A stretch of DNA of 63,369 bases from Stx2-converting phage Stx2a_F403, in sequence record AP012529; one strand, written 5' to 3'. Each line of letters starts with the position of its first letter. The stretch's first letter is position 1. The position numbers are program-made. Positions 27,001 through 30,000 of this stretch are shown here, piece after piece.

Positions 27001-30000
27001 GGTCTGTGTGCTGTATCTCCTTTCGGGTGGGTACAGGGCCATGCGTGACTTCTGGCGCAGACAGATTGACAAAAGGGCCGCTGAGAAAATCAGCGCCAGT
27101 CAGTCAGCCGGAAGCAAACCCGAAGAGCCGCTCATTTAGCGGCAACTTTCTTAATCACACCTTTCGACGAGAAAATCCCATGTCAGAAATTACATCCCTG
27201 GTCACTGCAGAGGCAGTGAAGGACGTCCTGCGCTCTGAAGAAGTCCGGAGCGCACTGAAACAGAAACTTCGCCATAACCTGGAAGCGCGTCTTGATGCAG
27301 AAGTGGATGCCATTCTGGATGAACTGCTTGGTGTACAGGCAGAGCCACCGACTGAAGCGGGAGATACCACCGCAGAGAGCGGTGAAGTTCAGCCTGAATC
27401 ACCGGTCGCCGATGCGACTGAACCTCAACCCGAATCGGTCATGATGCTGTAACGGGGAGTCAGGGCCATCAGTAAACAGCTGCTGGCCTTTTTCATGTTG
27501 TGAGCTTCCGGATTGCGGGAGACGGGGTATGTACCAGATGGAAAAAATCACAACAGGTGTGTCATACACCACGTCAGCGGTGGGAACGGGCTACTGGTTC
27601 CTGCAGTTGCTGGACAGGGTTTCCCCGTCTCAGTGGGCGGCAATAGGCGTGCTGGGGAGTCTGCTGTTTGGGCTGCTGACATATCTGACGAACCTGTATT
27701 TCAAGATTAAAGAAGACCGGCGTAAGGCGGCACGGGGAGAGTAAGCTGATGAGCAGGAAACTCCGCTATGGTTTATCGGCTGCCGTTCTGGCGCTGATTG
27801 CCGCAGGTGCTTCTGCGCCTGAAATCCTCGACCAGTTTCTGGATGAAAAGGAAGGTAACCACACCACAGCATACCGTGATGGTGCGGGTATCTGGACCAT
27901 CTGCCGTGGAGCCACCCGGGTGGATGGTAAGCCTGTTATTCCTGGCATGAAGCTGTCGAAGGAAAAATGCGACCGGGTTAACGCCATTGAGCGTGATAAG
28001 GCGCTGGCATGGGTGGAGAAAAACATCAAAGTGCCGCTGACCGAACCCCAGAAAGCGGGGATCGCGTCATTCTGTCCGTACAACATTGGTCCCGGTAAGT
28101 GTTTCCCGTCGACGTTTTACAGACGAATTAATGCAGGTGATCGAAAAGGTGCCTGCGAAGCTATTCGCTGGTGGATTAAGGACGGTGGCAGAGACTGCCG
28201 TATTCGTTCAAACAACTGTTACGGTCAGGTATCCCGTCGTGACCAGGAGAGCGCGCTGGCGTGCTGGGGAATCGACAGATAAGAAGAATATTTTGCTGAA
28301 AAATGAGGTTTGCTTACATGGACGGATAACACGAAATCCTGCAAATTGGCAAAATGTAAGTGAATAAAGTCAAAACAGTTGTTTAACACTCAGGCACCGT
28401 AATGATGCCTTTGTCATTTCTGCGCATCTCACGCGCATCTCACAACACAGAACCTTTCAGGATGACCCTTGAGGATACCGGTTTGGCTGTCGGTGCCTTT
28501 CTGTGGGCTGGATTCCTGTGAGACAAGGTTCATCACTAAAAGGAAATAACCGATGAATATGATGGCCGTGCCGTTTCACGGCAACTCTCTTTATGTAGTT
28601 AACCATAATGGCGAACCATACGTTCCCATGAAACCTGTCGTTGCGGGGATGGGGCTGGCCTGGCAATCACAGTTGGCTAAGTTAAGACAGCGTTTTGCGT
28701 CAACTATAACGGAAATCGTTATGGTTGCTGAGGATGGGAAACAACGCAATATGGTGTCCATGCCACTTCGAAAACTTGCCGGCTGGCTACAAACCATTAA
28801 TCCCAACAAAGTAAAACCCGAAATCCGCGATAAGGTCATCCGGTATCAGGAAGAGTGCGACGATGTTCTTTACGAGTACTGGACGAAGGGTTTTGTCGTT
28901 AATCCCCGTAAAATGAGCGTGATGGAAGAACTCAACCAGGCTTGTGCTGACATGAAACGGGATAAAAACATTGCCAGTGTGTTTGCTACCGGGCTGAATG
29001 AGTGGAAACAGGTTAAAGCCGCGCATGTATCAAAAATCCGTACGCTGGTAAATGAAGCGAATATGCTGATTGATTTTGTCCTGGCTGATACAGGCAAAGG
29101 GAAAATAACAAAGGCGGATTGATGGGGTGGCTAATGATATCAGATAAACTCATAACGCTGGTGAAGAGCCTCTGTGTACTTGTCGGCATTTCATTTTTAG
29201 TCATGCTGGTTGCCATTTTCTTTTCCACCGCCTGGCGAGTCCTGACGTTATCGGGACTGGTGGGGTGAAAGAGAGATGAACCGTGTTCTGTGTGTGGTGA
29301 TTATTGTCCTGGCGGTTGGCTATGGTGCGCTGTGGCTGGCAACAAACCATTACCGTGACAACGCGCTCACCTACAAAGCGCAGCGCGATAAAAAAGCCAG
29401 AGAGCTGGAACAGGCGAATGCCACCATTACTGACATGCAGGTGCGCCAGCGTGATGTTGCTGCGCTCGATGCAAAATACTCGAGGGAGTTAGCCGATGCG
29501 AGAGCTGAAAATGAAACTCTGCGTGCTGATGTTGCCGCTGGTCGTAAGCGCCTGCGGATCAACGCCACCTGCTCCGGTACCGTGCGTGAAGCCACCGGCA
29601 CCTCCGGCGTGGATAATGCAACCGGCCCCCGACTGGCAGACACCGCTGAACGGGATTATTTCATCCTCAGAGAGAGGCTGATCACTATGCAAAAACAACT
29701 GGAAGGAACCCAGAAGTATATTAATGAGCAGTGCAGATAGAGTTGCCCATATCGATGGGCAACTCATGCAATTATTGTGAGCAATACACCCGCGCTTCCA
29801 GCGGAGTATAAATGCCTAAAGTAATAAAACCGAGCAATCCATTTACGAATGTTTGCTGGGTTTCTGTTTTAACAACATTTTCTGTGCCGCCACAAATTTT
29901 GGCTGCATCGACAGTTTTCTTCTGCCCAATTCCAGAAACGAAGAAATGATGGGTGATGGTTTCCTTTGGTGCTACTGCTGTCTGTTTGTTTTGAACAGTA

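Follow-up and report, generated by a model that had tools for sequence, protein, structure and literature searches.

Upstream of an antirepressor-like gene in the lysis cassette of the Shiga toxin 2 (Stx2)-converting phage Stx2a_F403 (sequence record AP012529, 63,369 nucleotides, hereafter the window) we found a structured leader RNA of 132 nucleotides. The leader (28421..28552; all features lie on the plus strand unless stated otherwise) is located directly 5′ of the ant start codon ATG 28553, contains two pseudoknots and pairs the Shine-Dalgarno (SD) sequence of this gene. The RNA family is strongly supported by covariation and is apparently an undescribed one. The explanation that we regard as the best one as a whole, and as reasonably probable, is that a structured leader pairing with the SD gates a cargo gene of the late operon, and that this cargo is Rha-like.

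The sequence-only reading of this DNA had pointed to an Ant-like gene between the endolysin gene and Rz, and an open reading frame (ORF) of 189 amino acids (28553..29122) is indeed located between R (27749..28282) and Rz (29276..29740). It had further described the DNA between R and ant as a 270-bp leader. The spacer (28283..28552) does measure 270 bp, but it is not a single leader, as only the part from about 28373 onwards belongs to the ant cassette.

Fold of the leader RNA

A covariance model built here (R1) matches positions 28421-28554 with 133.9 bits (E about 1e-32), and this is the sole copy in the window. The fold, all helices of which are able to form in the window sequence, begins with a 5′ hairpin (H0, 28422-25/28433-36), the loop of which (28427-32) forms the pseudoknot PKa with the P2-P3 junction (28518-23). 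P2 (28461-71/28524-34) and P3 (28473-81/28508-16) together make up a long stem, and a second pseudoknot, P1, connects the 5′ flank (28446-52) with the apical loop of P3 (28499-505). It is the crossing of the P2/P3 stem by both P1 and PKa that creates the two pseudoknots. At the base of the fold the anti-SD CCUUU (28453-57) is paired with the SD AAAGG (28539-43); a further helix, P4 (28477-81/28490-94), is optional. The unpaired nucleotides that are conserved in at least 95% of the family members are CAG 28458-60, G 28506 and CU 28536-37, and CAG and CU make up the internal loop that separates the SD helix from P2. H0, the SD helix, P2 and P3 are present in the minimum free energy structure computed with RNAfold; RNAalifold, applied to an alignment that had not been fitted to the model, recovers H0, the inner part of P2, and P3.

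Covariation was assessed in two alignments. In a MAFFT alignment of 67 sequences 87.9% of the cells are paired, compared with 33-49% in slid controls, and 17 pairs have changed on both sides. The model-based alignment of 88 matches gives 89.8% paired cells (29-49% in slid controls); here, 29 of 41 pairs have changed on both sides, as opposed to 17.4 +/- 1.2 in shuffles, and none of 500 shuffles reaches 29. The CCUUU:AAAGG helix is paired in 99.8% of the cells of the latter alignment. The pairing figures for P1 are too low, owing to a shift of one register in the alignment of one clade. Individual helices illustrate the compensatory changes. The P1 strands CACAGAA/UUCUGUG are replaced by CGAGAG/CUCUCG, CUCAGAA/UUCUGAG, CCCGAG/CUCGGG and CCAAGAA/UUCUUGG, among others. 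In PKa, which joins the loop of the GCGC-N7-GCGC hairpin to the downstream junction, UCUCAC/GUGAGA becomes UCACAC/GUGUGA or UCGCAC/GUGCGA, and its central pair is UA in 34, GC in 29 and AU in 22 members, with two exceptions. Divergent copies have wholly re-matched strands in both PKa and P1, the PKa versions being UGCCC/GGGCA, CGCCC/GGGCG, CCGCA/UGCGG and UUCGCG/CGCGAA. H0 shows a compensatory U-A pair in one locus (L252) and wobble pairs in two others (L258, L259).

The fold also accounts for a perfect 11-bp tandem duplication that had been noticed in the spacer. The duplication, GCGCATCTCAC twice, exists and did not occur in any of 100 shuffles; it lies at 28422..28443, one base away from the position first given (28421..28442). 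Its first copy corresponds to the 5′ stem and loop of H0 (28422-32), its second copy to the 3′ stem and the adjoining linker (28433-43). Relatives have a different linker sequence, and their repeat is imperfect or missing; a linker that copies the H0 loop is seen in the window lineage only. A repeat-type regulatory site was rejected, as the repeat is unconserved and forms part of a structured RNA hairpin.

Cargo genes, distribution and novelty

Salmonella P22-like phages share about 87% identity with the stretch 28421..28557; in these phages it is found 5′ of a Rha-family gene directly after Rz. Conservation of the leader ends at the downstream start codon, and the genes beyond it differ. A search for more distant relatives retrieved the same block from phages of Klebsiella, Salmonella, Escherichia and Actinobacillus, the genes behind it bearing DNA-binding, HNH or KilA-N annotations, and a pattern scan of IMG/VR yielded at least 120 loci. 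A scan anchored at the 3′ part only gave nearly the same loci, which indicates that the 5′ hairpin and the 3′ part co-occur. Upstream of the leader the family members carry Rz, Rz1-like lipoprotein, lysozyme and tail genes, i.e. genes of late operons. The cargo downstream comprises KilA-N proteins (with or without ORF11CD3 or P63C), Phage_pRha proteins (with or without ORF11CD3), HNH_3+AP2 and T5orf172/MUG113 proteins and, in the window, P22_AR_N+ORF11CD3.

The rha gene of P22 is itself preceded by the leader motif (58 bits, E 2e-13 with model R1). In the P22 genome (NC_002371) the motif spans 39507-39641, and the annotated GTG start of rha (orf201) at 39575 falls inside the RNA. The true start of P22 rha is likely to be ATG 39644 (MNELIANHDFDF...), which gives a protein of 178 amino acids consisting of Phage_pRha and ORF11CD3; read from this codon, the ORF11CD3 match scores 96.7 bits.

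Some contigs that already contain one leader carry a second, divergent copy: L019 (2121-2250), L062 (9589-9718), L008 (90-225), L079 (601-738), L124 (572-703), L032 (3245-3358), L029 (2185-2323), L095 (341-460) and L068 (73-198). The second copy of L019, which is a lambdoid prophage that lacks stx, lies 3′ of a large ORF (945-1640), is followed only by an ORF of about 16 codons, and is located about 0.9 kb 5′ of a homologue of the 645-residue ORF found downstream of stx in the window (24888..26825).

Among 5,426 complete Escherichia coli genomes the leader is present in 775 (about 14%), at 2,257 places in total, seven of them on plasmids. Genomes with the leader have a median of two copies and a maximum of nine, and the O157 and O145 strains sampled have three to five. 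RefSeq annotates no feature under the leader matches of the 775 genomes. Likewise, Rfam 15 gave no match at E<=10 in 28200-29350 of the window, and the P22 and Actinobacillus versions of the leader produced sub-threshold chance matches only. Searches of open-access text for the core sequence of the leader, for locus tags and for descriptions of a structured RNA returned nothing relevant. A scan of genome contigs with the pattern CCTTTCAG N45-75 GTGNGACRRG picked up chance matches almost exclusively; a second, stricter check confirmed one locus (L208, Raoultella). Because this pattern was too loose, the taxonomic range given here is that of the phage, IMG/VR and E. coli collections.

A Rha-like architecture of the lysis-cassette protein

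The ORF 28553..29122 corresponds to L0109 of 933W, H0123 of VT2-Sakai and d_ant of phi24B, and has been named 'ant' in GenBank since the 933W and VT2-Sakai genomes. It matches P22_AR_N (PF10547, 1.4e-45) and, in its C-terminal part, ORF11CD3 (PF10549, 5.5e-6; 27.0 bits against a cut-off of 25). Only residues 10-136 of P22 Ant (NP_059643) align with the lysis-cassette protein, at 50% identity, and of the 317 positions of the PHROG profile phrog_524 only 7-210 are covered. P22_AR_C was absent from the ORF both in the Pfam search and in the comparison with P22 Ant. Since this protein matches the N-terminal half of P22 Ant only, and the last 104 residues of the Ant protein encoded in the nin region match P22 Ant as well, the two halves of P22 Ant are divided between different genes here. 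The lysis-cassette protein and P22 Ant thus share a homologous N-terminal P22_AR_N domain, but the former ends in ORF11CD3, whereas P22_AR_C is found in the separate genes at 19680 and 62165. The genetic context differs, too. The gene lies outside an immI region and lacks arc/mnt/sar control; instead of an immI-type context we found a position between R and Rz, with no Rfam match in 28200-29350. Comparison with solved structures revealed no informative relatives of the lysis-cassette or nin-region Ant proteins.

A closer parallel is provided by Rha (orf201) of P22 and phi80. Both genes are located in the late operon beside the lysis genes, both proteins combine an N-terminal domain of DNA-binding type with ORF11CD3, and both are preceded by the same leader RNA family. 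There are differences as well: the N-terminus is Phage_pRha in Rha and P22_AR_N here, the overall similarity of the proteins is marginal, and the cassette of the window occupies the space between R and Rz instead of following Rz. As P22_AR_N+ORF11CD3 is the architectural counterpart of P22 Rha, a late DNA-binding factor resembling Rha is a more likely identity of the protein than that of a proven CI antirepressor, and Ant(189) would best be seen as late cargo of the Rha type that carries an Ant-N domain. The antirepressor role of d_ant is an inference from its annotation (PMC4426718), and a 20-nt RNA, 24B_1, has been predicted to bind within d_ant (PMC4426718; PMC10732415). A passage in PMC4936722 that cites Henthorn & Friedman 1995 describes rha as detrimental to phage growth without IHF (integration host factor), which fits a need for tight control.

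A proposed translational gate in the late operon

Directly 5′ of the leader, a decayed terminator-like hairpin, GGCAcc-GUAAU-gaUGCC, followed by UUUGUCAUUU, can be read from the sequence (28393..28419); the terminator scans did not flag it. An intact hairpin occupies the homologous position in one related locus (L255), and a terminator-like hairpin with a T-run precedes the RNA in 76 of 87 family members, its end lying mostly 7-26 nt upstream. No sigma70-like site turned up near the leader when 27400-30500 was scanned for promoters.

We propose that the leader acts in cis as a translational gate and not as a repeat-bearing promoter or operator. The terminator-like hairpin directly 5′, the lack of a detected promoter and the late-operon location suggest that the leader would be transcribed within the Q-dependent late transcript by read-through of the upstream hairpin. 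The RNA folds into the double-pseudoknot structure shown by the covariation, and the SD of ant, which is paired in this fold, would become occluded and translation thereby impeded. Since the fold would occlude the SD, the amount of Ant(189) produced may be low, or its production may await a trigger, candidate openers of the fold being a ligand, a protein, a small RNA (sRNA), temperature or processing. The same leader serves as a fixed 5′ module for exchangeable cargo (Ant-N, Rha, KilA-N, HNH-AP2, T5orf172), the rha gene of P22 included.

Leaders that sequester the SD at the 5′ end of a transcript, several of them pseudoknotted, are known from translational riboswitches (preQ1-II, SAM-II), RNA thermometers and the com-mom leader of Mu. 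The leader described here resembles them in the pairing of the SD of the downstream gene and in its pseudoknotted fold; it differs in that it is a new leader without an Rfam match, and in that its cargo consists of exchangeable phage DNA-binding or nuclease genes rather than metabolic ones. Its pseudoknots, conserved internal loop and SD pairing are suggestive of a riboswitch-like architecture.

Several points weigh against a gate of this kind. Repression of translation is something that we infer from the pairing itself. The SD helix has only 5 bp and adjoins a 3x3 internal loop, and in the P22-type variant the register of the SD pairing is ambiguous. The stability of the single-sequence fold is unremarkable (z = -1.23, pseudoknots unscored). 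A candidate 'ON' helix that would serve as the alternative structure (element positions 30-36 with 105-111, where 28421 = 1) can form, but received no support, as it performed no better than shuffles or slid controls. Because a few closely related clades dominate the alignment, the cell counts exaggerate the number of independent events. The consensus promoter scan leaves room for a promoter that overlaps the terminator, and the novelty of the leader is judged from Rfam 15 and the open-access text search.

Alternative explanations

From the perspective of the genes, one could argue that they encode functional antirepressors, which inactivate CI-type repressors of the phage itself or of co-resident lambdoid prophages, and that the repeat-bearing leader is an ordinary regulatory region. 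All of the ORFs belong to families named after antirepressors, the N-terminal half of the lysis-cassette protein is 50% identical to P22 Ant, and the nin-region ant raises late-promoter activity after induction in phi24B (PMC3064807). With three to five leader copies in O157 genomes, effects in trans are conceivable, too. The lysis-cassette protein, however, has no P22_AR_C; in architecture, position and leader it matches Rha and not the Ant of immI, and a gene in the late operon with a sequestered SD would come late for self-induction. Moreover, the role ascribed to d_ant in the literature derives from annotation, the literature searched yielded no evidence of repressor binding by roi-type or AntA-type proteins, and the repeat is not conserved. 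We regard this explanation as unlikely. It is also conceivable that the leader cleaves itself as a ribozyme or provides a specific processing signal for an RNase, and that it frees the cargo mRNA from the long late transcript in this way; the SD pairing would then be incidental. The compact fold with its two pseudoknots and the invariant unpaired nucleotides (CAG 28458-60, G 28506, CU 28536-37) would suit a ribozyme, and so would the combination of a terminator-like hairpin and a structured RNA at a module boundary. In the same vein, ribozymes are known beside single genes of prophages, and the processing of long phage transcripts has been suggested as their role (PMC3088659). Yet no Rfam ribozyme family matches, and a CCUUU:AAAGG helix that is near-invariant although the genes whose SD it involves are unrelated speaks for translational control, which makes cleavage or processing quite improbable in our view.

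The conservation of the block might also reside at the DNA level, either in a recombination 'linker' that allows the swapping of cargo at a module boundary or in a promoter/operator in which the GCGC-N7-GCGC palindrome and the direct repeats serve as protein sites. Conservation does stop exactly at the start codon of a highly exchangeable cargo, and the palindrome is near-invariant. Long-range compensatory changes (28429 with 28521, and the strands of P1, P2 and P3), on the other hand, require single-stranded pairing and a fixed orientation, and no sigma70-like promoter was found; a DNA-level explanation is thus very improbable, although a role as recombination anchor agrees with a functional RNA and may be a by-product of it. 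Finally, the conserved block could encode a small protein that is translationally coupled to the downstream gene. A 39-codon ORF (28402..28521, phrog_16173), often called a hypothetical protein, is annotated by gene callers in many records, matches its PHROG profile at 3e-21 and has a hydrophobic C-terminal stretch. Nevertheless, in 45 of the 88 family members none of the frames remains uninterrupted over (almost) the full length of the element, and this ORF is therefore probably spurious. Indels of 1 nt occur inside otherwise conserved blocks, substitutions between E. coli and Salmonella are mostly non-synonymous in the frames of either strand, and coding constraint would not predict compensatory base-pair changes. 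A coding function of the block was rejected as extremely improbable.

A more far-reaching proposal, which we consider doubtful at present, is that the leader is an RNA switch of a new class, responding to a ligand or a factor, or else a ribozyme of a new kind, and that it gates a whole class of exchangeable antirepressor-like genes (Ant-N, Rha, KilA-N, HNH-AP2, T5orf172) in phages of Enterobacteriaceae and Pasteurellaceae, including P22 and Stx phages. If this were true, then together with sRNA-Xcc1 and C4/IsrK it would make RNA-level control general for antirepressor-like phage genes, and the leader could tie a cellular signal to Ant production and prophage cross-talk in enterohaemorrhagic E. 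coli. The leader, which is present in the model phage P22 and in clinically relevant Stx phages, offers testable handles on the restraint of toxic or dosage-sensitive cargo (Rha, KilA-N, Ant-like, homing-endonuclease-like) inside late operons, on the free swapping of cargo genes behind a fixed 5′ module, and on whether and when the 'Ant' of the Stx lysis cassette is made. It also corrects two likely mis-annotations, namely the small 'hypothetical protein' in the RNA and the start that P22 rha has been given.

The right-end AntA gene and sRNA-Xcc1

A gene at the right end (62165..62794, minus strand) and a hairpin upstream of it (62824..62844) had also been noted, and both are present; the hairpin, CCGCCAG-CUACUAA-CUGGCGG on the minus strand, is exact, with a 7-bp stem and a 7-nt loop. 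The gene (L0142 of 933W) encodes AntA and P22_AR_C domains. Directly before it an RNA of the sRNA-Xcc1 family (RF02221; 62835..62923, minus strand) scores 69.1 bits against a gathering threshold of 53 and is itself preceded by a terminator; the hairpin is located between the sRNA-Xcc1 core and the ribosome-binding site of antA. sRNA-Xcc1 is known as a trans-acting integron sRNA from Xanthomonas. In IMG/VR, exchangeable genes for Bro-N+P22_AR_C, AntA, ORF6N, Rha or KilA-N proteins follow 80-100 nt after the sRNA-Xcc1 core in 74 of 89 loci. In its placement, this RNA behaves like a leader for the cargo class of the new motif, and not only like a trans-acting sRNA. The fold and sequence of sRNA-Xcc1 differ from those of the new leader, but the arrangement before exchangeable genes is parallel. 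As the sRNA-Xcc1 core likewise precedes these genes, two unrelated RNAs serve as fixed 5′ modules of one shuffled gene class.

The nin-region genes and their RNA control region

The interval 19680..21154 in the nin region had been assigned to the antirepressor family as a single gene, and Pfam bears out the family, but it holds two ORFs. The first (19680..20357; ORF6N and P22_AR_C) is the ant gene of phi24B, to which it is 99.9% identical at the DNA level; the last 104 residues of its product are 82% identical to P22 Ant, a figure quoted by Fogg et al. The second (20426..21154) is a roi-type gene, named Roi in VT2-Sakai and phi24B, with a weak Phage_pRha match and ANT/KilAC. In phi24B, deletion of ant lowered a pR'-lux reporter to 27-56% of the wild type after norfloxacin, complementation restored its activity, and superinfection was unaffected (PMC3064807).

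The control region of the nin-region ant (19408..19679) was delineated from Rfam matches and by reading the sequence. It begins with a sigma70-like TTGACG-N17-CTATAT (19408-36), which is followed by IsrK/c4-a1b1 with its own terminator (19430-19517; isrK 73.7 bits, gathering 50; c4-a1b1 50.6 bits, gathering 46.7) and by the C4 antisense RNA (19542-19626; 75.1 bits, gathering 45). By inspection, GAUUAGCAC at 19629-37 looks like a b2 target, as it repeats b1 and complements the C4 loop GUGCUAA; a 4-codon mini-ORF, ATGATTAGCACCTGA (19627-41), would enclose it, some 40 nt ahead of the start codon of ant (ATG 19680). The control of this gene seems to be of the P1/P7 immI type, i.e. of a known kind. 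With C4 of P1/P7 immI and with IsrK-AnrP of Gifsy-1 it shares C4, a1b1 and IsrK matches above the Rfam gathering thresholds directly 5′ of ant. In contrast to P1/P7, the system is located in a lambdoid nin region, and the icd-like leader ORF is apparently reduced to the 4-codon mini-ORF. The C4/IsrK system is unrelated to the leader RNA of the lysis cassette.

The antirepressor-type gene set and its phage background

The window represents a wrbA-type Stx2 lambdoid phage near Min27, phi24B and 933W. Its positions 27700-29800 are 100% identical to VT2-Sakai, Stx2 II and many further records, and identity to Min27, phi24B and 933W amounts to 99.8-100% in the nin region and at the right end. The sequence-only reading had counted three antirepressor-type genes. 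The type is confirmed, as all four ORFs match antirepressor-type Pfam and PHROG families in domain searches; the number is not, because the three places contain four ORFs. The suggestion that these genes bear on the induction of the toxin phage has published support for one of them, the nin-region ant, in the reporter data of PMC3064807, and it is for this gene only that functional data exist (Fogg 2011). All of the gene-level observations are already annotated, as L0109 of 933W (d_ant of phi24B), ant of phi24B, roi and L0142. The earlier reading is thus correct as an observation and over-reads function, and at the level of genes nothing is added to the present annotation of Stx phages.

Surroundings of the ant cassette

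The lysis-cassette ant is part of a known cargo cassette of 933W/phi24B-type Stx phages (ant/d_ant), about 750 bp in length and inserted between R and Rz. Comparison with ant-less phages places its edges at about 28373 and about 29118, and it consists of the weak terminator hairpin, the leader RNA and the gene. The sequence directly 3′ of R (28283..28372) is common to lambdoid phages regardless of the cargo that follows and lies outside the cassette: in an alignment it is nearly identical to the ant-less Stx2c_EH0474, PhiR12_3 and Stx2_499 up to about 28372 and diverges beyond. In the ant-less phages a strong terminator hairpin (AAAACCCCG...CGGGGTTTT) comes after the conserved stretch of about 90 bp 3′ of the R stop codon. 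The order R-ant-Rz is found in 245 of 463 related phage records. Between ant and Rz, a very hydrophobic ORF of 49 codons (29119..29268, phrog_4906) overlaps the ant stop codon; it is also present in the ant-less PhiR12_3 and may add a small membrane protein to the lysis cassette.

The 3′ end of R (28210-28220) and the left edge of the ant cassette (28374-28384) contain the two arms of a perfect 11-nt inverted repeat, AAACAACTGTT/AACAGTTGTTT, which may be due to chance. Further Rfam matches at gathering level, all known in Stx phages, are STnc100 and AsxR directly 3′ of stx2 (24476-24735), the lambda cIII thermoregulator (7899-7957), a sok antitoxin RNA of a hok/sok-type module near the right end (60309-60483), and three tRNAs 5′ of stx (22819-23067).

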